The notes: generated from the sequence alone by a model not told the origin. 64,000 nt of DNA from Betaproteobacteria bacterium (GCA_052386675.1 JBQTJX010000019.1:81498-145497), one strand, 5' to 3'. Shown: positions 6,870 to 61,958, numbered from the stretch's first letter. Made by a program: numbers and translations.

Positions 6870-7513
6870 CCGAGTTGGCCCAGTACTATGCCAGGCGCGC
6901 CTCGGAGTACGAGCGCATCTACGCCAAGCCTGAGCGCCAGGCCGACCTCTCGGCGCTGCGCAGCCGCATTGGCAGCATGTTCGCCGGCCGCAAGGTGCTG
7001 GAGCTTGCCTGCGGCACCGGCTGGTGGACGCCGGTGATCGCGCAGTCCGCGGCGCAGGTCACCGCGCTGGATCTGAACGAAGAGGTGCTCGAGATTGCCC
7101 GCACCAAGGACCTGCCCGCGGGCAGGGTGGAGTTCGTCAAGGGCAGCGCATTCGAGCTGCCGGACTTCGGGCGGCGGCACGACGCCCTGTTTGCCGGATT
7201 CTGGTGGTCGCATGTTCGGCTGGAGGAACTCGATGCGTTCCTTGCGTCCGCCGTGTCCGCGGTCGCCCCCGGTGCGCTGCTGGCTTTCCTGGACAACCGC
7301 TACGTCGAGGGCTCGAGCACGCCGGTCTCGCGCCGCGATGCGCAGGGCAATGCCTTCCAGACGCGCAAGCTGGCCGATGGCAGCAGCCACGAGGTGCTGA
7401 AGAACTTCCCCGAGACCGGCGAGCTTGTCGGGCGCGCCTTGCGCTGCGGCACGGACGCGCACGTGGACCTGCTGGAGCACTACTGGCTGCTCAGCTTCCG
7501 GGCTCCGAAGTGA
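6866..7513 (+). CDS. class I SAM-dependent methyltransferase
   Basis: 215 aa with motif I VLELACGTGWW. ATGA overlap with the ABC ATPase stop. Confidence 0.75.
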   Translation: MTELAQYYARRASEYERIYAKPERQADLSALRSRIGSMFAGRKVLELACGTGWWTPVIAQSAAQVTALDLNEEVLEIARTKDLPAGRVEFVKGSAFELPDFGRRHDALFAGFWWSHVRLEELDAFLASAVSAVAPGALLAFLDNRYVEGSSTPVSRRDAQGNAFQTRKLADGSSHEVLKNFPETGELVGRALRCGTDAHVDLLEHYWLLSFRAPK

Positions 7514-8343
7514 GCGCCGTGTTCGACATCCGCGGCCCGAGAACGCCGGCGATCCCTCTGGTGCTGGATTCGCCGCACTCGGGCAACCGGTTCCCGGACG
7601 ATTTCGGCGCCATGGTGAGCGAGGCCGAGTTGCGCGAAGGCGAGGATTGCTTCGTGGACGAACTTTATGCCGCCGCGCCTGAGATCGGCGCGCCGCTGCT
7701 TGCCGCGCGCTGGCCGCGCACCTACCTGGATCCCAACCGCAACGTGGGGGATGTTGACCTCGATCTGATGGACGGGCCCTGGCCCTGGGAATACGTGCCC
7801 AGCGGCAAGGCGAAAGTCGGCAAGGCACTGCTGTGGCGCACGCTCGAGGACGGAAGGCCCATCTATCCGCGCCGCCTGTCGCCGTCGGAAGTGCGCGGCC
7901 GCATCGATCGCTGCCACGCCCCGTACCACGCCGCCATCCGCGAACTGCTCGACGCCTCGATGCAGAAATTCGGCAAGGTCTGGCACATCAACTGCCATTC
8001 CATGCGCGGCACCGCCGGCAAGCAGAGCGAGGACGGGGAGGGCAACGTGCGCGCCGATTTCGTCCTCGGGGACCGCGATGGCACCACCTGCGAGCCGGCG
8101 TTCACCGAACTGGTGCGCCGGACGCTGTCCGGGATGGGCTACTCGGTCAAGGTGAACGATCCCTACAAGGGCGTCGAGCTGGTGCGCGCCTATTCGGATC
8201 CGAAGGCGGGCCGCCACAGCCTGCAGATCGAGATCAGCAAGCGCCTGTACATGGACGAGGCCGCGCTCGCGAAGAGCGCCGGCTTCGACAAGCTGCAAAA
8301 GGACCTGACCACGCTGCTGGAGGAAATTCGCAAAGCCCTATGA
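7510..8343 (+). CDS. N-formylglutamate amidohydrolase family protein
   Basis: GTG start overlaps the upstream stop (GTGA). FGase-family blocks LVLDSPHSG, RTYLDPNR and WHINCHSM. Confidence 0.75.
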   Translation: MSAVFDIRGPRTPAIPLVLDSPHSGNRFPDDFGAMVSEAELREGEDCFVDELYAAAPEIGAPLLAARWPRTYLDPNRNVGDVDLDLMDGPWPWEYVPSGKAKVGKALLWRTLEDGRPIYPRRLSPSEVRGRIDRCHAPYHAAIRELLDASMQKFGKVWHINCHSMRGTAGKQSEDGEGNVRADFVLGDRDGTTCEPAFTELVRRTLSGMGYSVKVNDPYKGVELVRAYSDPKAGRHSLQIEISKRLYMDEAALAKSAGFDKLQKDLTTLLEEIRKAL

Positions 8344-9305
8344 ACACGAAACAGACCACAGGCCACTATCCCGTCGATCTTTCGCCGCCCGACATCGCGT
8401 CCTATCGGCAAGGCAATACCGGCGTCGACTACGTGCAGGTGCTGGATTCCGGAAGACCCGGGCCGAATGTCATGATCCAGGCACTGACGCACGGCAACGA
8501 AATCTGCGGCGCCATCGCGCTGGATTACCTGTTCAAGGAAGGCGTGAGGCCGGCGCGCGGCAAGCTCACGCTTGCTTTCGCCAACGTGGAGGCATTCGCG
8601 CGCTTCGACTACGACGACCCGGACCGCTCGCGCTATATCGACGAGGACTACAACCGCGTGTGGGCGGACGAGGCTCTGTTCGGCAGGCGCGATTCCATCG
8701 AACTGCGCCGGGCGCGCCAGTTGCAGCCCTTCGTGGACGCGGCCGACTACCTGCTCGACCTTCATTCCATGCACGAGCCCTGCCGTCCGATCATGGTGTG
8801 CGGAACGAGTGAAAAGAGCGCCACGTTTTCGCGCAAGCTGGGCGTCCCCGGTGACCTGCTCATCGACACCGGCCATCCGGCGGGACTGCGCATGATGGAG
8901 CGGGGCGGTTTCGGCGACCCGGCAAGTTCCCGGACCGCGGTGCTCATCGAGTGCGGGCAGCACTGGGAGAAGTCCTCCGCCGAGGTGGCGAAGGACACGG
9001 TGCTGCGCTTCCTCAAGGTCACCGGCGCGGTGGAGCCGGCCTGGGCCGATTCCCGGATCACCCTCGCGCCGCCGAAAGAGCAGCGCCTGGTTCGCGTCAC
9101 GCAAGCGGTGGTCGCAAAGTCCATGGCATTCAAATTCGCGTGGTCATTCAAGGGCCTGGAAGTGATCCCGAAGGCCGGCACGGTGGTCGCCACCGATGGC
9201 GATACCACCTGGAAGACGCCCTACGACAATTGCGTCATGGTGATGCCGTCGGTGAAGCACCTGAAACCGGGAACGACCCTCGTGCGTTTAGGTCGATATG
9301 ACTGA
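8340..9305 (+). CDS. succinylglutamate desuccinylase/aspartoacylase (AstE/AspA, M14-like) family protein
   Basis: 321 aa with metal-site-like QALTHGNEICG and DLHSMHE blocks. ATGA overlap with the upstream gene. Confidence 0.75.
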   Translation: MNTKQTTGHYPVDLSPPDIASYRQGNTGVDYVQVLDSGRPGPNVMIQALTHGNEICGAIALDYLFKEGVRPARGKLTLAFANVEAFARFDYDDPDRSRYIDEDYNRVWADEALFGRRDSIELRRARQLQPFVDAADYLLDLHSMHEPCRPIMVCGTSEKSATFSRKLGVPGDLLIDTGHPAGLRMMERGGFGDPASSRTAVLIECGQHWEKSSAEVAKDTVLRFLKVTGAVEPAWADSRITLAPPKEQRLVRVTQAVVAKSMAFKFAWSFKGLEVIPKAGTVVATDGDTTWKTPYDNCVMVMPSVKHLKPGTTLVRLGRYD

Positions 9306-9894
9306 CATGAAGTGGCTCCTTTCCCTCGCGCTGGTGCTATTGGCGCTTCCGGCATCGGCCCAGATCTACAAGTGGACCGACGCCCAGGGGCGGGTGCACT
9401 TCTCGAATCAGGCCCCGCCGCAGGGCGTCAAGGCCGTAGTCGTCGATCCGAACGCGAAGGAAGTGCCGCCAGCGCCCGCTGCCGAGGGCAAGGAATGCCA
9501 CACCATCCGCTGCCAGGGCGAGCGGCTGGAGGAGCGCGAGCGCCAGCGGGCCGCGGTGGAGCAGAAGGAAGCGGCGGCGCGCGCAGAGCGCGACGCCCGC
9601 GCGCCCAAGCCCCACAAGGGCCTGGCCTTCGCCAAGTACATCAGCATCCAGCGCGGCATGAGCGAAGGCGAACTGCTGGGCATCGCCGGCGAGCCCGACC
9701 TGCTTTCGGACCAGGGCGTTGCATTCGCCTCACCGGGAACCGTGCAGATGGCGCCGGGGGTGCGCAGGCCCGCGCGCACGGGCCTGTCGCTCAAGACCTG
9801 GACCTACATGCCCACCACGTCCGACCCCTTCACCACCACCATCACGCTCGTGGGCGGGCGGGTGTCCGAGATCGAGCGCGTGCGCAAGTTCTAG
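9298..9894 (+). CDS. DUF4124 domain-containing secreted protein
   Basis: Signal peptide followed by IYKWTDAQGRVHFSNQAPP, the DUF4124 signature. An alternative start is ATG 9307. Confidence 0.7.
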   Translation: MTDMKWLLSLALVLLALPASAQIYKWTDAQGRVHFSNQAPPQGVKAVVVDPNAKEVPPAPAAEGKECHTIRCQGERLEERERQRAAVEQKEAAARAERDARAPKPHKGLAFAKYISIQRGMSEGELLGIAGEPDLLSDQGVAFASPGTVQMAPGVRRPARTGLSLKTWTYMPTTSDPFTTTITLVGGRVSEIERVRKF

Positions 9895-9943
9895 CGCCCC
9901 GGCATCGCGCACCCCCTGCGCGATCTGCTACCCTGCGCGCCCC

Positions 9944-55726: not shown

Positions 55727-56788
55727 ATGACAAGAACGTTCACGCAGTCGCTGTTCGCAGTCGCTCTGGCGCTCACCGCCACGCTTTCCTTCTCGCAGGA
55801 CTACCCGACTCGCAAGGAGGGCAGCTGGATCGCGAAGGACTTCCGCTTCCACACGGGCGAAGTGCTGCCCGAGCTGCGGCTGCACTACACGACGCTCGGC
55901 GATCCGAAGAACGAACCGATTCTGGTGCTGCACGGCACCACCGGCTCGGGCGGGGGCATGCTCAACCCGAACTTCGGCGGCCAGCTGTTCGGTCCCGGCC
56001 AGGCGCTCGACGCGTCGAAGTACTTCATCATCCTTCCCGACGCCCTCGGCCACGGCAAGTCGAGCAAGCCCTCGGACGGCCTGCGCGCGAAATTCCCCCG
56101 CTACAACCTGGACGACATGGTGCACGCCCAGCATCGCCTGGTGACCGAGGGGCTGGGCGTGAAGCGCCTGCGCCTCGCCATCGGCAACTCCATGGGCGGC
56201 ATGAACGTCTGGCTGTGGGGCGTGAAATACCCCGAGGTCGCCGATGCGCTGGTGCCCATGGCCTCCATGCCGATCGCCATGTCCGGGCGAAACTACATCA
56301 TGCGCCGCCTGATCGTGGACTCGATCCGCAACGACCCCGACTGGAAGAACGGCGACTACACCACGCAACCCAGGAGCGCGCTGTTCTCGCAGGTGTATTT
56401 CGGCCTTGGCACCAACGGCGGCAACCAGGCGCTGCAGCGGATCGCGCCCACGCGCGAGGCGGCCGACAAGCTCGTCGACGGGCGCCTCGGGGCGAAGTAC
56501 ACCGCCGACGCCAACGACAACCTGTACCAGTGGGATTCGTCGCGCGATTACAACCCCAATCCGGGCCTGGAGCGCATCCAGGCGCATGTGCTGGTCATCA
56601 ATTCCGCGGACGACGAGCGCAACCCGCCCGAGCTGGGCGTCATGGAGCGCGAATTGAAGCGGATCCGGAATGCCCGACTGTTGCTCATCCCGGGGAGCCC
56701 GCAAACCGCGGGCCACGGCACCACCGCGCAGGCGCGGTGGTGGAAAGACGAAATGGCGGCGTGGCTTGCGAGCGTGCCGCGGCGCTAG
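55727..56788 (+). CDS. secreted alpha/beta hydrolase (homoserine O-acetyltransferase-fold family)
   Basis: 353 aa with a signal peptide, VLHGTTGSGG and nucleophile elbow GNSMGG. Confidence 0.75.
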   Translation: MTRTFTQSLFAVALALTATLSFSQDYPTRKEGSWIAKDFRFHTGEVLPELRLHYTTLGDPKNEPILVLHGTTGSGGGMLNPNFGGQLFGPGQALDASKYFIILPDALGHGKSSKPSDGLRAKFPRYNLDDMVHAQHRLVTEGLGVKRLRLAIGNSMGGMNVWLWGVKYPEVADALVPMASMPIAMSGRNYIMRRLIVDSIRNDPDWKNGDYTTQPRSALFSQVYFGLGTNGGNQALQRIAPTREAADKLVDGRLGAKYTADANDNLYQWDSSRDYNPNPGLERIQAHVLVINSADDERNPPELGVMERELKRIRNARLLLIPGSPQTAGHGTTAQARWWKDEMAAWLASVPRR

Positions 56789-57687
56789 GCGACGCGATTC
56801 TCGAGCGCTTCGCCCCGTTCCAGGCGGCGAGCATTTTCCAGGGCGAGCCCCAGGCTGCGCTCGATCGTCTCCGGCGTAAGCCAGGCCAGGTGGGGCGAGG
56901 CGACCACGTTCGGGAACGAGAGCAGGGGATGATCGGGCCGCACTGGCTCTTCGCTGAAGACGTCAAGGCCGGCGGCGCGGAGGTGGCCTGAGCGGAGGGC
57001 TTCGAGCAGGCCTTGTTCGTTGACCAGGCCGCCGCGGGCGGTGTTGACCAGGATGGCGCCTTTCTTCATTTGGCGCGGATCCACGATCCGTTCTGTCCCG
57101 GACGTGAGCGGGATATGCAGGGAGACGATGTCGCTGTGCGAGAGCACGGTTTCGAGGTCGGCAGACTGCGCCGACCTCGACCAGTAGAGAACCTTGGCGC
57201 CCATGGCTTCGAGGATCGGTTGGAGGATTTTCGGGACGGCGCCGTAGCCGATGAGGCCTACGGTGCGGCCGCCCAGTTCGCCGAAGTTGTCCTGCAGTCC
57301 CCAGGCTTCGAACCAGCCCCCGCGCTTCCTTGTCGCCGCATCCAGTTCCCGAATCCTTCTCAGGCACGCCAGCATCAGCAGCAGCGCCATTTCCGCCACC
57401 GCTCGGCTGTTCGTTCCGGGCAGGTTGCACACCGCGATGCCGCGCGCCTTGCAGGCCTCGACGTCGATGGTGTTCACGCCGCTGCCGATCTTGTGCACCA
57501 GGCGCAGTTTCGGCGCGCGGGCGATGACCGCCGCGGTCACGGGCTTGAGGACGTGCCAGAGGACTTCCACCTCCGGCAGCAGGCGCTCGAAGGCGGCTTC
57601 GTCGCTCTCCGGGCACAGGGTCACGTCCATGGCCGCGAGCCGCGCGCCCAGGGCGCCGCTGCCGTCGAAGTGGAAGACGATGTTCAT
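56785..57687 (-). CDS. D-isomer-specific 2-hydroxyacid dehydrogenase family protein
   Basis: 300 aa with NAD motif GLIGYGAVP and catalytic-region blocks NTARGGLV and SPHLAW. ATGA overlap with the enolase-like stop. Confidence 0.85.
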   Translation of the reverse strand: MNIVFHFDGSGALGARLAAMDVTLCPESDEAAFERLLPEVEVLWHVLKPVTAAVIARAPKLRLVHKIGSGVNTIDVEACKARGIAVCNLPGTNSRAVAEMALLLMLACLRRIRELDAATRKRGGWFEAWGLQDNFGELGGRTVGLIGYGAVPKILQPILEAMGAKVLYWSRSAQSADLETVLSHSDIVSLHIPLTSGTERIVDPRQMKKGAILVNTARGGLVNEQGLLEALRSGHLRAAGLDVFSEEPVRPDHPLLSFPNVVASPHLAWLTPETIERSLGLALENARRLERGEALENRVA

Positions 57688-58943
57688 TTCTGAAGGTAGC
57701 GCCGGAACAGCTTGCGCGCCGGGTAGGGCAGGCGGCCGTCGCCCAACGCCTCCTCGATGCGCAGGCCTTCGTTCCATTTCGCCATGCGCTCGGAGCGGGC
57801 GAAGCTGCCGACCTTGAGCTGCGGCACGCCCCAGCCCACCGCCAGGTGCACGATGGAGACGTCCTCGGTTTCGCCGGAGCGCGCCGAGACGATGGCGCCG
57901 TAGCCGGCGGCCTTCGCCGCGTCCCAGCAGGCAAGTGTCTCGGTCAGGGTGCCGACCTGGTTGGGCTTCAGGAGCACGGTATTGCAGGCGCCCTGCGCCG
58001 CCGCGGTGGTGACGCGCGCGGCGCTGGTGACGAAGAAGTCGTCGCCCACGACCTGCACTTTGGTTCCGGCGGTGCGGGTGAAGGAAGCCATCGCATCGGC
58101 GTCGTGCTCGGCGAAGGGATCCTCGATGGACACTATGGGGTAGCGCCCGATCCACGAGAGCAGCATGGCGTGCAGCTGCTCGGCGGAGAGACTGCGGTTC
58201 TCGACCGCGAGGCGGTAGCGGCCATCCTTGTAGAACTGGTTCGCGGCGATGTCCAGCGCGATCGACGCATCGGCTCCGGGCTTGAAGCCGGCATCCGAAA
58301 TGGCGCCGGTCAGTTCCGCGATGCCTTCCTCGTTCGACTTGAACGCCGGCCACCAGCCGCCTTCGTCGGCGACGCCCTGCAGCGCGTCCTTTTTCGCCAT
58401 GCGCGCGCCGGCGGCCCGGTAGATCTCGGCGGTCCACTCCAGGCTCTCGGCAAAGCTGCCGGCTCCGGTGCAGATCACCATGTAGTCCTGGATGTCCACC
58501 CGTGCGCCGGCGTGCGCGCCGCCGCCGAAGATCTGGATCTGCGGCACCGGCAGCCCGACCTTGCGCTCGCCGGCGAGGTGCTGCCACAGGGGCTTCCTCG
58601 CCGCAGCGGCTGCCGCGTGCGCGGCGGCCAGCGAGACCGCGACGATGGCGTTGCCGCCCAGGCGGCTGCGGTCTGGGGTGCCGTCTAGCTTGACCAGCCG
58701 CTCGTCCAGCGTCGCCTGGTCGCGCGGGTCGCTTCCGATGAGGGCGGTCCGTATCCTGCCGTTGATCGCGGCGACGGCTTTCGCCGCGTCGATGCTCCTG
58801 GCCTCGCCGGCCCCGGTGGAGGCGCCCGCGGGTGCGATGGCGCGTCCTTGCCTGCCGTTCTTGAGCGTGATTTCCGCCTCGACCGTAGCGCGGCCGCGGG
58901 AATCCCAGACCTTGCGCCCGCGAACGTCGACTATTGTCGCCAT
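57684..58943 (-). CDS. divergent enolase-family protein
   Basis: 419 aa, colinear with enolase (DSRG..TVEAE, GASTG, ADEGG, SIEDP, VGDDFFVT, LLKPNQVGT, SARSGETED, QLKVGS). It differs at IQDYMV (canonical IQEFMI) and SARSGE (canonical SHRSGE). Confidence 0.8.
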   Translation of the reverse strand: MATIVDVRGRKVWDSRGRATVEAEITLKNGRQGRAIAPAGASTGAGEARSIDAAKAVAAINGRIRTALIGSDPRDQATLDERLVKLDGTPDRSRLGGNAIVAVSLAAAHAAAAAARKPLWQHLAGERKVGLPVPQIQIFGGGAHAGARVDIQDYMVICTGAGSFAESLEWTAEIYRAAGARMAKKDALQGVADEGGWWPAFKSNEEGIAELTGAISDAGFKPGADASIALDIAANQFYKDGRYRLAVENRSLSAEQLHAMLLSWIGRYPIVSIEDPFAEHDADAMASFTRTAGTKVQVVGDDFFVTSAARVTTAAAQGACNTVLLKPNQVGTLTETLACWDAAKAAGYGAIVSARSGETEDVSIVHLAVGWGVPQLKVGSFARSERMAKWNEGLRIEEALGDGRLPYPARKLFRRYLQK

Positions 58944-59929
58944 GAATGCCTGACCTGGATGAGGGAAGAGGGTGGCGCATCGAGAAGGGCGCGGGTGACG
59001 TCGCGCACGCGGGTTTTCTGGTCTTCGCGATCGAGGTATTCCACCGGCGACTTGCCGTCCACGCGCGCGAGCAGCAGGCCGGGCAGCAGCGACGCGGCGC
59101 GGCCCTCGACGGCGGCGGCCGGTTCCCAGCGCACGCCCGCGAGGTAGCCGGCGCGCAGGGCGTCGAAGGAATCCAGGTAGCGCGCCGCGTGCTGCGGCCG
59201 CCACAGGCACTTCAGCAGCAGGTGATTGAGGCAGAAAGCGAGGTCGAAGGCGGGATCGCCGTACCACGCGCACTCGGCGTCCAGGAACACGGGACCATCG
59301 GGCCCGGCGAGGATGTTCTTCGGGCTGACGTCGCCGTGCACCAGCGCGAGGCGCGTGTTCGCGGTCCTTTCGGCGAGGCCGTTCAGCGCCGCCGCATGGC
59401 GTGGATGCGCCCTTGCGGTCGCGAGCAGGTAGGGCTCCAGGCGGATGGCGTGGAAATTGGCGTCGGTCGCAAAAGCCTGCGCAACCACGTCCTGCCCGGC
59501 GGTGGCGGCATGGATCGCGGCGAGCCGCACGCCAACCTGGCGCGCGAAGGCGGGGTCGACGCGCCCGTCGCGCAGTTCGGCCTTCCACAAGGGCAATCCG
59601 CCCAGGTACTCCATGGCGAACACGCCGGCGTCGTCGTGCGCCAGGATCTTCGGCGCCGAGCCCGGAACCGCGGCCGACGCCGCCTGCATCCAGCGCCATT
59701 CGAAGCGGTTGCGTTCCACGGGCGCTTCCCAGACCTGCGCCACCCGCAGGCGCGCCAGGGCCTGCTTTACGACGATCGATTCGAAACCGCCGCCCCTGCG
59801 CACCCTTACGTGCCAGATGTCGGAGGAGACCCCTCCTGCGAGCGCCTCGGCCGGGGGCGATTCATCGGCGGCGATAAGGCCCTGCACGCGCAGGAAGCCC
59901 AATACGCGCTCAGGGAGCAAGGCGCTCAA
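58931..59929 (-). CDS. aminoglycoside-phosphotransferase-fold kinase (MtnK/APH-like), start uncertain
   Basis: Catalytic loop LVHGDVSPKNIL and metal loop FLDAECAWYGDPAFDL. Candidate starts are TTG 59929, TTG 59920 and GTG 59890. The 3' end overlaps the enolase-like start by 13 nt. Confidence 0.7.
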   Translation of the reverse strand: MSALLPERVLGFLRVQGLIAADESPPAEALAGGVSSDIWHVRVRRGGGFESIVVKQALARLRVAQVWEAPVERNRFEWRWMQAASAAVPGSAPKILAHDDAGVFAMEYLGGLPLWKAELRDGRVDPAFARQVGVRLAAIHAATAGQDVVAQAFATDANFHAIRLEPYLLATARAHPRHAAALNGLAERTANTRLALVHGDVSPKNILAGPDGPVFLDAECAWYGDPAFDLAFCLNHLLLKCLWRPQHAARYLDSFDALRAGYLAGVRWEPAAAVEGRAASLLPGLLLARVDGKSPVEYLDREDQKTRVRDVTRALLDAPPSSLIQVRHSWRQ

Positions 59930-60545
59930 TCGCCCAGCGCTTGCCGTCGGAGCTATAGCGCAGCCGGTCGTGGAGGCGGTTGGCGCGTCCCTGCCAGAAC
60001 TCGATGCGCTCCGGAACCAGGCAATAGCCGCCCCAGTTCGCCGGGCGCGGCGGCTGGTCGCCGTGCTGCGCCTTCTGCGCGGCCGCGGCGCGCTCCAGCG
60101 CATCGCGATCAGGCACCACGGCGCTCTGCGTCGAGGCGCGCGCCGAGAGCCGGGCGCCAAGCGGCCGGCTGGCGAAATAGGCCTCCGACGCTGCCGCGGA
60201 GACCTTCGTTACGCTGCCCTCGATGCGCACCTGGCGCTCCAGGGGCGCCCAGAGGAACACCAGGCAGCCCAGCGGGCGTGCCGCGAGCTGGCGCCCCTTG
60301 GCGCTGTCGTAGTTGGTGTAGAACACGAAGCCGCCGTCCTCGACGCCCTTGAGCAGGACGATGCGCGCATCGGGCGCGCCCGCCTCGGAGACCGTGGCGA
60401 GGGTCATGGCGTTGGCGAGGGGCAGGTCCGCCGCCAGCGCGTCGCTGAACCAGCGCTCGAACTGCGCGAAGGGATCGGGCAGGGCGTCGGCCTCGGCCAG
60501 CCCGGCTTGCATGTATTCCTGCCTCAGGTCCGCGATGTTCACCAC
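59910..60545 (-). CDS. pdxH: pyridoxamine 5'-phosphate oxidase
   Basis: 211 aa, full-length PdxH pattern (TVSEAGAPDARIVLLKG...FVFYTNYDSAKG...IEFWQGRANRLHDR). Confidence 0.9.
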   Translation of the reverse strand: MVNIADLRQEYMQAGLAEADALPDPFAQFERWFSDALAADLPLANAMTLATVSEAGAPDARIVLLKGVEDGGFVFYTNYDSAKGRQLAARPLGCLVFLWAPLERQVRIEGSVTKVSAAASEAYFASRPLGARLSARASTQSAVVPDRDALERAAAAQKAQHGDQPPRPANWGGYCLVPERIEFWQGRANRLHDRLRYSSDGKRWAIERLAP

Positions 60546-60564
60546 GGGATTTTATAATGCGGCG

Positions 60565-61518
60565 GTGCGTCCCCCTTCGGTATTCGACCATGCCCACGGC
60601 ATCAGCACCGTGGACAGTGTCTATGATCGCGCCCTGCAGACTGCCGTCCACATCCTGGTGGAGCGGGGCCGCGCCGCGATCGTGGATACCGGCACCGCCC
60701 ACGCCGTGCCCGCGACGCTCGCGGCGCTGGCGCGCAAGGGCATCGCGCCGGAGCAGGTTGCTTACGTCATCCTTACGCATGTACACCTGGACCACGCCGG
60801 CGGCGCGGGCCAGCTGATGGCGCTATGCCCCAATGCGCGGCTGACGGTGCACCCCCGCGGTGCGAAGCACGTCATCGACCCGAGCCGTCTCCTCGCGGCG
60901 ACAGCGGCCATCTATGGGGAAGAAGCCACACGCCGGATCTACGGCGAGGTGCTGCCGGTGGCAAAGGAGCGCGTCATCGAGACGCCCGAGGGCGCGCGGC
61001 TGGAACTGGAGGGCCGTGAGCTGCGTTTCTTCGATACCCCCGGCCATGCCCGCCACCACGTCGTGGTGCGGGACGGCGCGAGCGGACACCTGTTCGCGGG
61101 CGACACTTTCGGCCTTTCCTACAGGGAGCTGGACGTGGACGGACGTCAGTCGGCGTTCCCGACCACCAGTCCCTCGCAGTTCGATCCGGTCGCGCTGCAC
61201 CACTCCATAGACCGTATGCTCGCCCTGGACCCGGAGGCGGTCTATGTCGCGCACTTCGGGCAACTGCGGGATATCGCACGCCTGGCCGCTGACCTGCAGC
61301 GCCTGGTCGAGGCGCACGCCGCGCTCGGCGAGCGCTGCCGTGGTGCGGGCGGGAAGCGGTTCCCTCTGCTGAAAGAAGGCGTTACCGCGCTTGTGCTCGA
61401 CGAGCGCGCTCGCCAGGGATGGCCGGTTTCAGAGGAGAAAGCGCTTGAAATCTTCGCGCTCGACATCGAGTTGAACGCGCAGGGACTCGACGCCTGGCTC
61501 GGCGCAAAGCGGGATTGA
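60565..61518 (+). CDS. MBL-fold metallo-hydrolase (start uncertain)
   Basis: HxHxDH motif LTHVHLDHAGG and later DTPGHARHH. An in-frame ATG at 60535 would overlap the divergent pdxH start, so GTG 60565 is preferred. Confidence 0.7.
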   Translation: MRPPSVFDHAHGISTVDSVYDRALQTAVHILVERGRAAIVDTGTAHAVPATLAALARKGIAPEQVAYVILTHVHLDHAGGAGQLMALCPNARLTVHPRGAKHVIDPSRLLAATAAIYGEEATRRIYGEVLPVAKERVIETPEGARLELEGRELRFFDTPGHARHHVVVRDGASGHLFAGDTFGLSYRELDVDGRQSAFPTTSPSQFDPVALHHSIDRMLALDPEAVYVAHFGQLRDIARLAADLQRLVEAHAALGERCRGAGGKRFPLLKEGVTALVLDERARQGWPVSEEKALEIFALDIELNAQGLDAWLGAKRD

Positions 61519-61670: not shown

Positions 61671-61958
61671 ATGGCGAAGAAGAAGGCGAAGAAGGCCGGC
61701 AAGAAGCGCAAGCCCAATGCGGCATTCATGAAGCCGATGAACCCGACCGCGACGCTCGCGGCCGTGATCGGCTCCAACGCGATGCCGCGTACCGAGGTCA
61801 CCAAGAAGATCTGGGCCTACATCAAGAAAAACGGGCTGCAGGACAAGAAGAACCGCCGCAATATCAACGCGGACGACAAGCTCAAGCCGGTGTTCGGCGG
61901 CAAGGCACAGGTTTCCATGTTCGAGATGACCAAGCTGGTCAACAAGCACCTCAAGTAA
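61671..61958 (+). CDS. SWIB/MDM2 domain-containing protein with Lys-rich N-terminal tail
   Basis: 95 aa, MAKKKAKKAGKKRK tail then a SWIB core (LAAVIGSNAMPRTEVTKKIWAYIKKNGLQD...). SD GAGGAG lies upstream. Confidence 0.8.
   Translation: MAKKKAKKAGKKRKPNAAFMKPMNPTATLAAVIGSNAMPRTEVTKKIWAYIKKNGLQDKKNRRNINADDKLKPVFGGKAQVSMFEMTKLVNKHLK

Follow-up and report, generated by a model that had tools for sequence, protein, structure and literature searches.

Non-phosphorylative pathways for sugars and sugar acids cleave a 2-keto-3-deoxy-aldonate with an aldolase, or oxidise it and then cut it with an FAH-family hydrolase, giving pyruvate and a short acid. When hexonates are degraded this short acid is glycerate. 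In the glycerate 2-kinase branch, D-glycerate is phosphorylated to 2-phosphoglycerate, from which enolase forms phosphoenolpyruvate (PEP). A C3 acid can also be drained by private copies of central-pathway enzymes, as in the tartrate operon ttuABCDE of Agrobacterium vitis, which carries its own glycerate kinase (TtuD) and pyruvate kinase (TtuE). In canonical enolase, Glu168 and His373 (yeast numbering, used for all enolase residues) are located beside the C3 hydroxyl and Glu211. Mutating these residues cripples yeast enolase and, to our knowledge, both are invariant in canonical enolases.

Here we describe a locus in a stretch of 64,000 nucleotides from a Betaproteobacteria bacterium (GCA_052386675.1, JBQTJX010000019.1:81498-145497), referred to as the window and numbered from its first letter. 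The locus is a predicted operon of four minus-strand genes, encoding PdxH, a kinase of the APH fold, an enolase paralog and a D-isomer-specific 2-hydroxyacid dehydrogenase. The kinase and the paralog proved to be a widespread pair in which the enolase has lost both Glu168 and His373, and which may convert a glycerate-type acid to PEP.

A conserved kinase-enolase pair

The kinase gene (positions 58931-59929, minus strand; TTG start, with an alternative TTG at 59920) encodes an MtnK-like small-molecule kinase of 332 amino acids, belonging to PF01636. It is followed by the gene for the enolase paralog (57684-58943, minus strand; ATG start; 419 amino acids, with the Enolase_N and Enolase_C domains and a match to TIGR01060). 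By direct reading of the sequence, the kinase stop and the paralog start overlap by 13 nucleotides (58931-58943, minus strand), and overlaps of 7-16 nucleotides at this junction recur in related loci.

The first-pass annotation of the window had proposed a survey of the gene neighbourhood of this pair. When one genome was scanned for each GTDB species, at least 583 species, with at least 583 stretches, proved to contain a relative of the kinase; the best 80 loci were examined. The enolase paralog was adjacent to the kinase on the same strand in 77 of the 77 loci that were long enough to judge, usually directly after the kinase and in two loci before it. The loci came from Beta- and Alphaproteobacteria, Acidobacteria and Methylomirabilales; the pair was also found on actinobacterial and haloarchaeal plasmids. 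In an HMMER scan of 1.84 billion representatives, the matches to the kinase at E<=1e-30 fell into 782 clusters (50% identity).

Genes neighbouring the pair were called crudely, and clustered with a GC3 filter (G + C at third codon positions) against antisense open reading frames (ORFs) in high-GC loci; counts of accessory neighbours are approximate. Two associations emerged. pdxH was linked to the pair in 21 of the 80 loci, all from one Burkholderiales clade sharing SWIB, fbp and ABC ATPase neighbours. Orthologs of the dehydrogenase (50-87% identity) adjoined the pair in 29 of the 80 loci (about 36%), either downstream or divergently upstream. Neither the clustering of all neighbours nor a Pfam tally of 135 flanking proteins from outside the pdxH clade found another conserved partner; in the tally, 2-Hacid_dh counted 11 members and the next families 3-4 each (FGGY, SBP_bac_5, GNAT and others). 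Since the pair was adjacent in every informative locus and had no other common partner, the unit of selection is the kinase plus the enolase paralog, with the D-2-hydroxyacid dehydrogenase as a frequent accessory and pdxH as a lineage-specific leader. The arrangement of kinase and enolase is not due to chance. The four genes had been viewed in the first-pass annotation as one translationally coupled operon; of this, the syntenic pair stands, but the four do not make up one conserved route.

Some variants of the pair were seen as well. In one Burkholderiales lineage a small gene of the VOC/glyoxalase family (about 130 amino acids) lies between the kinase and the paralog (L043:6948-7367 and L081:6980-7366). 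VOC proteins also flank the paralog in islands of Cupriavidus and Rhizobium, and one is found at the edge of a Rhodococcus island. In two metagenomic sequences (P0183 and P0185) the kinase ORF reads through into, or is fused with, an enolase domain, possibly as an assembly artefact.

In the window, the pair is preceded by pdxH (59910-60545, minus strand; GTG start; 211 amino acids; TIGR00558, PF01243 and PF10590) and followed by the dehydrogenase gene (56785-57687, minus strand; ATG start; 300 amino acids; 2-Hacid_dh and 2-Hacid_dh_C). Direct reading of the sequence places the pdxH stop and the kinase start in an overlap of 20 nucleotides (59910-59929, minus strand), or 11 nucleotides when the TTG at 59920 is used; the related loci L004-L012 have a comparable overlap of 17 nucleotides. 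The paralog stop and the dehydrogenase start share the sequence ATGA (57684-57687, minus strand; 4 nucleotides). The sequence and its translations thus confirmed that the four genes overlap at each junction, as the first-pass annotation had stated. A consensus scan found no promoter-like sites within the four-gene cluster, and terminator-like sites were not in excess of the shuffle expectation. The four-gene arrangement is a lineage-specific packaging of a real, widespread and uncharacterised module.

An ORF of 353 amino acids (55727-56788, plus strand), alpha/beta-hydrolase-like by translation only, converges on the dehydrogenase gene. The stop codons of the two overlap by 4 nucleotides (56785-56788), which leaves no space for a terminator between the converging operons. 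Beside pdxH, a divergent ORF (about 60550-61518, plus strand) has a metallo-beta-lactamase-fold look, also by translation only, and a SWIB-domain gene is found nearby (61671-61958, plus strand). Together with fbp and the ABC ATPase gene they form a synteny block that is conserved across the pdxH-linked Burkholderiales clade.

Active sites of the three enzymes

The paralog contains both enolase domains (PF03952, 122.8 bits; PF00113, 289.9 bits) and is 44.7% identical to the host's own canonical enolase. It scored 428.8 bits against TIGR01060 (cut-off 300), which is 244 bits below the housekeeping eno of the host at 672.5 bits. The paralog was aligned to E. coli enolase (3h8a) and the residues of 73 family members were tallied. 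Thirteen positions were invariant in 73 of 73 members: Ser39, His159, Gln167, Glu211, Asp246, Glu295, Asp296, Asp320, Asp321, Lys345, Arg374, Ser375 and Lys396. These include the magnesium ligands (Ser39, Asp246, Glu295 and Asp320) and the acid/base residues (Lys345, Glu211 and Lys396), which are the same in the family, the E. coli enzyme and the canonical copy of the host. The invariant metal ligands, together with Lys345, Glu211, Arg374 and Ser375, argue that the beta-elimination chemistry on a 2-phospho acid is retained.

Two positions were changed in all 73 members: Glu168 is replaced by Asp and His373 by Ala, whereas E. coli enolase and the canonical host copy keep Glu and His. Asp168 and Ala373 were present even in two members that are just 42-43% identical to the host paralog, and the plasmid copies (from Rhizobium, Rhodococcus, Cupriavidus, Azospirillum, Paracoccus, Roseibium, Burkholderia, Methylobacterium and haloarchaea) all read SARSGET. 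The family would thus have kept the machinery for proton abstraction and for binding of phosphate and carboxylate, with a remodelled leaving-group pocket. Other motifs differ from the canonical enzyme as well, with GDEGG(F/Y)AP changed to ADEGGWWP and SIEDG to SIEDP. In addition, 11 residues after active-site loop L1 (the ELRDGDKSRFLGKGV region of canonical enolases) are deleted, at 58780-58830 of the window, around residues 47-52 of the paralog; this deletion is restricted to 14 members, all from the pdxH-linked clade.

A more distant arrangement was found on an Enterobacter chuandaensis plasmid (NZ_CP097174.1, locus 7193-9918). Here a kinase homolog with 40% identity is divergent to an enolase-like 'hypothetical protein', which is 34% identical to the paralog and does not have the SxRSGET motif. 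The surrounding genes encode a U32 peptidase, an aminotransferase, an M14 peptidase, an MFS transporter and a nucleotidyltransferase. This cluster may be a natural-product-type offshoot of the kinase-enolase pairing.

The kinase matched the APH profile PF01636 with 62.4 bits (cut-off 23.2). Its best NCBIfam match was MTRK (the methylthioribose kinase MtnK, TIGR01767) with 64.4 bits against a cut-off of 275, which is below equivalog level, and its nearest solved structures were those of MtnK (2pyw and 2olc, E about 1e-5). Only families of the APH type were matched; there was no homology to glycerate kinases of class I (PF02595) or class II (MOFRL, PF05161). The gene is single-copy in the host genome. 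The motifs HGDVSPKN and DAECAWYGDP, which the first-pass annotation had listed, occupy residues 198-205 and 217-226 of the kinase. Among 195 kinase sequences, K55, E77, H198-G-D200, N205, D217 and E219 were conserved, with values of at least 95% for K55, H198-G-D200, N205, D217 and E219. To judge by these residues, the ATP-binding lysine, the HGDxxxxN catalytic loop and the DxE metal loop are all intact. The basic residues R73, R163, K240 and R289 are conserved in the 195 members too. Several family-invariant Arg, Lys and His residues fit with an anionic substrate, and the family-specific Arg and Lys suggest an acid, not a thio-sugar. In one metagenomic protein of 720 amino acids (P0217), an N-terminal UxuA (D-mannonate dehydratase) domain is fused to an MtnK-like kinase domain, which ties the kinase family to sugar-acid catabolism.

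The dehydrogenase scored 159 bits against PF02826 and 90.5 bits against PF00389. Its closest structure is 1wwk from P. horikoshii, with whose catalytic residues its motifs NTARG, DVFSEEP and SPHLA align; both domains, the GxGxxG motif and the Arg, Glu and His of the D-isomer-specific 2-hydroxyacid dehydrogenases are present. The top NCBIfam matches (PGDH, GyaR and PRK06487) were at about 180 bits, each under its own cut-off. Phosphoglycerate dehydrogenase SerA (TIGR01327) was rejected as an assignment: the score was 180 bits against a cut-off of 454, and the Arg-Ser motif, which binds the substrate phosphate in SerA, is missing. In the alignment, VRSKPKV of 1wwk corresponds to HVLKP-V, so that Val-Leu replaces Arg-Ser. 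At the position of the strand-end Asp of the NAD-dependent relatives, the alignment with 1wwk places Ser-Arg-Ser, which suggests use of NADPH and a reductive direction. A second, CtBP-like subfamily of 2-hydroxyacid dehydrogenases, 31-35% identical to the host enzyme, is located beside the pair in Rhizobium, Rhodococcus, Cupriavidus and Halomarina. A D-2-hydroxyacid dehydrogenase has thus been recruited at least twice, and recruitment of two unrelated subfamilies in different lineages argues that a step between a D-2-hydroxy acid and a 2-oxo acid is required.

Genomic contexts and candidate substrates

A tblastn search of plasmids and chromids with the kinase gave 33 records, and ten annotated contexts were inspected. 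In Rhizobium, a LysR regulator gene, ppc, a dehydrogenase gene and the kinase gene form a string on one strand, with genes for a cupin, a VOC protein, a zinc-dependent alcohol dehydrogenase (Zn-ADH) and an FMN reductase nearby and the variant enolase gene 5 kb off. On the Rhizobium indicum plasmid (locus L085, 5133-9963) the PEP carboxylase gene, the CtBP-like 2-hydroxyacid dehydrogenase and the kinase are placed under a LysR regulator. This linkage to ppc argues that the module ends in PEP. Rhodococcus opacus PD630 has the order FAH, dehydrogenase, enolase, kinase, FAH. In Cupriavidus necator, genes for LacI, an MFS transporter, FAH, a dehydrogenase and the kinase face genes for a cupin, the enolase, an FMN reductase, a VOC protein, a CMD protein and a Zn-ADH. 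Paracoccus and Roseibium have LacI followed by kinase, enolase, FAH, SDR, a sugar ABC transporter and further SDRs, with TRAP or TTT transporters upstream. A Burkholderia pseudomallei plasmid carries two UxuA genes, SDRs, a lactonase, FAH, the kinase, the enolase and a sugar ABC transporter. In haloarchaea, MR/MLE and DgoD dehydratases and aldolases accompany a kinase-enolase-cupin set, and Azospirillum brasilense has a TRAP transporter, GntR, PhyH and a PEP-mutase-family lyase with the kinase and the enolase.

FAH hydrolases were adjacent to the pair in Rhodococcus, Cupriavidus, Paracoccus, Roseibium and on the B. pseudomallei plasmid. Together with the sugar-acid dehydratases, the transporters for sugars or acids and the UxuA-kinase fusion, these hydrolases point to a C3 acid as substrate. 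By their gene content, the islands carrying the pair would be of the non-phosphorylative sugar or sugar-acid type, the last step of which is expected to release a C3 acid.

From these data a 'reduce, phosphorylate, eliminate' module can be proposed, consisting of three enzymes and evolutionarily separate from the housekeeping pdxH that would lead the operon. The dehydrogenase would reduce a 2-oxo acid to a D-2-hydroxy acid, probably with a preference for NADPH, in the simplest case hydroxypyruvate to D-glycerate. The MtnK-like kinase would then phosphorylate the 2-hydroxyl with ATP. Lys345 of the variant enolase would take the C2 proton and Glu211 would act as the acid in the loss of the C3 substituent; the product would be PEP, which could enter central metabolism directly. 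Since the module rides behind the only pdxH of the genome, it is probably expressed constitutively. Judged on sequence and gene context, we give about an even chance to the conversion of a glycerate-type acid to PEP by the kinase and the variant enolase. Among the candidate substrates D-glycerate, which would be processed via 2-phosphoglycerate, comes first, tentatively and at somewhat less than an even chance. The first-pass annotation had suggested reduction or oxidation, phosphorylation and dehydration, resembling a glycerate-to-PEP bypass with an unusual kinase family. As chemistry this is still the best fit, in line with the string of ppc, dehydrogenase and kinase, the FAH hydrolases and the sugar-acid dehydratases. 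However, the route does not bypass a missing glycerate kinase, since most carriers have a canonical one.

The host assembly (74 contigs, 93% complete) contains a housekeeping eno on contig C39 (G000:C39:54612-55874), identified by its TIGR01060 score. The enolase-like gene is thus a second copy, as had been anticipated in the first-pass annotation. No class I glycerate kinase was found in the host genome. Several observations weigh against the reading with D-glycerate. The host has a MOFRL (class II) glycerate 2-kinase on contig C22, next to rpoA and rplQ. In a sample of 251 genomes of the same order, of which 49 carry the kinase and 202 do not, the MOFRL kinase was present in 46 of the 49 carriers and in 100 of the 202 non-carriers; the odds ratio of 15.6 in favour of co-occurrence (Fisher test, ignoring phylogenetic non-independence) shows only an absence of anticorrelation. 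Outside the order (Alphaproteobacteria, Acidobacteria, Methylomirabilales and others) 47 of 50 carriers were positive, bringing the total to 93 of 99 carriers. All 49 carriers in the order had at least two enolase matches, including the canonical one at about 1e-200; a second enolase was found in about 15 of the 202 non-carriers. With a canonical glycerate kinase and enolase already present, a plain D-glycerate route would be redundant. Furthermore, the window holds no transporter, regulator or sugar-acid gene. Neither the near-universal coexistence with the canonical enzymes nor the universal replacement of Glu168 and His373 is explained by D-glycerate as the substrate. Operon-specific isozymes such as GarK and GlxK of E. 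coli form a precedent for redundant glycerate kinases.

In the genomes sampled, the pair always comes on top of a canonical glycerate kinase and enolase, and never takes their place. The idea that the kinase replaces a missing glycerate kinase was rejected on the basis of the 93 of 99 carriers with a MOFRL kinase. Likewise, there was no case in which the paralog stands in for the glycolytic enolase, as 49 of 49 carriers keep the canonical copy.

Because the invariant Glu168Asp and His373Ala replacements lie next to C3, a glycerate-like acid outside the range of the housekeeping enzymes has to be considered as well. Phosphorylation and elimination would follow the same logic, but the D-configured 2-hydroxy acid would carry a bulkier group at C3 or lose a different group from it. 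The canonical kinase and enolase would be unable to process such an acid, for which the candidates are (S)-3-sulfolactate (giving PEP and sulfite), glycerate with a 3-O-substituent, and C4 acids, for example L-threonate or D-erythronate. Asp168 and Ala373, fixed in an otherwise preserved active site, would enlarge the C3 pocket, and both the presence of canonical enzymes in nearly all carriers and the fact that the variant is never the sole enolase argue against simple redundancy. However, the family still has Glu211, which has to supply the acid when a hydroxyl is the leaving group. The dehydrogenase aside, there is no conserved downstream enzyme for a product other than PEP, and the linkage to ppc favours PEP. 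We consider such a substrate rather unlikely. For sulfolactate in particular, no family of sulfite exporters or sulfite dehydrogenases was found among the 25 commonest Pfam families of the 135 neighbouring proteins or in the ten annotated contexts. Sulfolactate was rejected as a reading by itself, and is kept only among these other substrates. In its wider form, the proposal would be that Asp168/Ala373 enolases work with an MtnK-like acid kinase of their own to turn some 2-hydroxy acid, but not D-glycerate, into PEP or a PEP analogue, with a 3-substituted lactate (sulfolactate) or a C4 sugar acid as candidates. This we put forward as a speculation with a limited chance of being correct.

A lack of any metabolic coupling is improbable. 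In that case the paralog would serve glycolysis as a second isozyme, or be a moonlighting copy without catalytic activity, and the kinase would act on an unrelated sugar resembling methylthioribose (MTR) or on a xenobiotic; the paralog does exceed the TIGR01060 cut-off, and the nearest characterised relatives of the kinase are MTR kinases and antibiotic phosphotransferases. Against this stand the invariable adjacency across phyla, usually with overlapping stop and start codons, the strictly conserved catalytic residues of the paralog, the second enolase in every carrier as opposed to few non-carriers, and the read-through or fused ORFs (if these are not assembly artefacts). In addition, methionine-salvage families were absent from the 25 commonest Pfam families of the neighbouring proteins and from the ten annotated contexts. 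Most improbable of all is a branch of vitamin B6 synthesis, which the first-pass annotation had offered as an alternative, with a 4-phosphoerythronate step. The dehydrogenase and the kinase would then supply 4-phosphoerythronate dehydrogenase (PdxB) or another step towards a precursor of pyridoxal phosphate (PLP) for an operon led by pdxH. This gene is a clear equivalog (250.3 bits against TIGR00558, cut-off 180; PF01243 and PF10590 present) and the sole copy in the host, with a single tblastn match in the whole genome. It overlaps the kinase start, its linkage is kept across a Burkholderiales clade, and no host protein scored above the PdxB cut-off, although a search for pdxA or pdxJ in the host was not made. 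However, pdxH was absent near the pair in 59 of the 80 loci, that is, outside this clade, and the pair occurs in just 49 of the 251 genomes of the order. The dehydrogenase reached 88.8 bits against PdxB (NF001309, cut-off 434) and was only the seventh most PdxB-like of nine host paralogs. Neither pdxA, pdxJ nor serC was found beside the pair in any locus examined, and we know of no role for enolase in the PLP routes, which also counts against such a branch. The vitamin B6 branch was therefore rejected: what speaks for it is limited to the lineage-specific linkage of pdxH, and the PdxB scores and the distribution of the pair gave no positive evidence.

Comparison with known systems

Searches of full-text literature found no publication describing the kinase-enolase pair. 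In databases the paralog is named 'phosphopyruvate hydratase' or 'enolase', and the kinase 'aminoglycoside phosphotransferase', 'phosphotransferase' or 'methylthioribose kinase'. With these names, metabolic reconstructions count a resistance-like gene and one more glycolytic enolase, although the pair is probably a dedicated funnel from an acid to PEP. With D-glycerate as the substrate, the kinase would represent a fourth class of glycerate kinases, structurally unrelated to the others and equipped with an enolase of its own. With any other substrate, there would be a second reaction within the enolase subgroup, which has long been regarded as isofunctional; this would be the first functionally divergent family in an otherwise single-function subgroup and a route absent from current pathway maps, present in hundreds of bacterial species from soil and freshwater and in some haloarchaea. 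Cultured carriers include Azospirillum brasilense, Cupriavidus necator, Rhodococcus opacus PD630 and Methylobacterium nodulans.

The best-scoring characterised relative of the kinase is MtnK (TIGR01767; 2olc and 2pyw), with which it has the APH fold, the HGDxxxxN loop and the D-x-E-x-A-x-YG metal loop in common. It differs in its score (64 bits against the cut-off of 275), in the glycine-rich loop (GGVSSD) and in the lack of methionine-salvage genes among the common neighbouring families. The elimination proposed for sulfolactate would be the reverse of the reaction of phosphosulfolactate synthase ComA (PEP plus sulfite to 2-phospho-3-sulfolactate), on the same skeleton of a 2-phospho-3-substituted propanoate. 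However, ComA belongs to an unrelated protein family and works in the biosynthetic direction, and nothing in our data ties the pair to sulfonate metabolism.

With canonical enolase (EC 4.2.1.11; E. coli 3h8a, yeast 1ONE) the paralog shares the two-domain fold, about 45% identity, the magnesium ligands and Lys345, Glu211, Lys396, His159, Arg374, Ser375 and Ser39. It is set apart by Asp168 and Ala373, the motifs ADEGGWWP and SIEDP, the clade-limited deletion of 11 residues and its occurrence as an extra copy that is always tied to the kinase. The use of private copies of central enzymes is also the strategy of ttuABCDE. However, that operon uses canonical families with unaltered active sites, and is not known to have a private enolase.

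Taken as a funnel from a glycerate-type acid to PEP, the module comes closest to the branch of glycerate 2-kinase (GarK/GlxK, class I; TtuD/GckA/TM1585, MOFRL class II) and enolase. The proposed net chemistry is alike, from D-glycerate, which may be formed from hydroxypyruvate, via 2-phosphoglycerate to PEP. Like the glycerate 2-kinase branch in the glyoxylate, tartrate, glucarate and serine-cycle routes, the pair is found at the end of acid or sugar-acid islands and in the company of a D-2-hydroxyacid (hydroxypyruvate) reductase. In contrast to that branch, the kinase has an APH/protein-kinase-like fold, the enolase is the module's own and has two altered pocket residues, and 93 of 99 carriers have the MOFRL kinase in addition to the pair.

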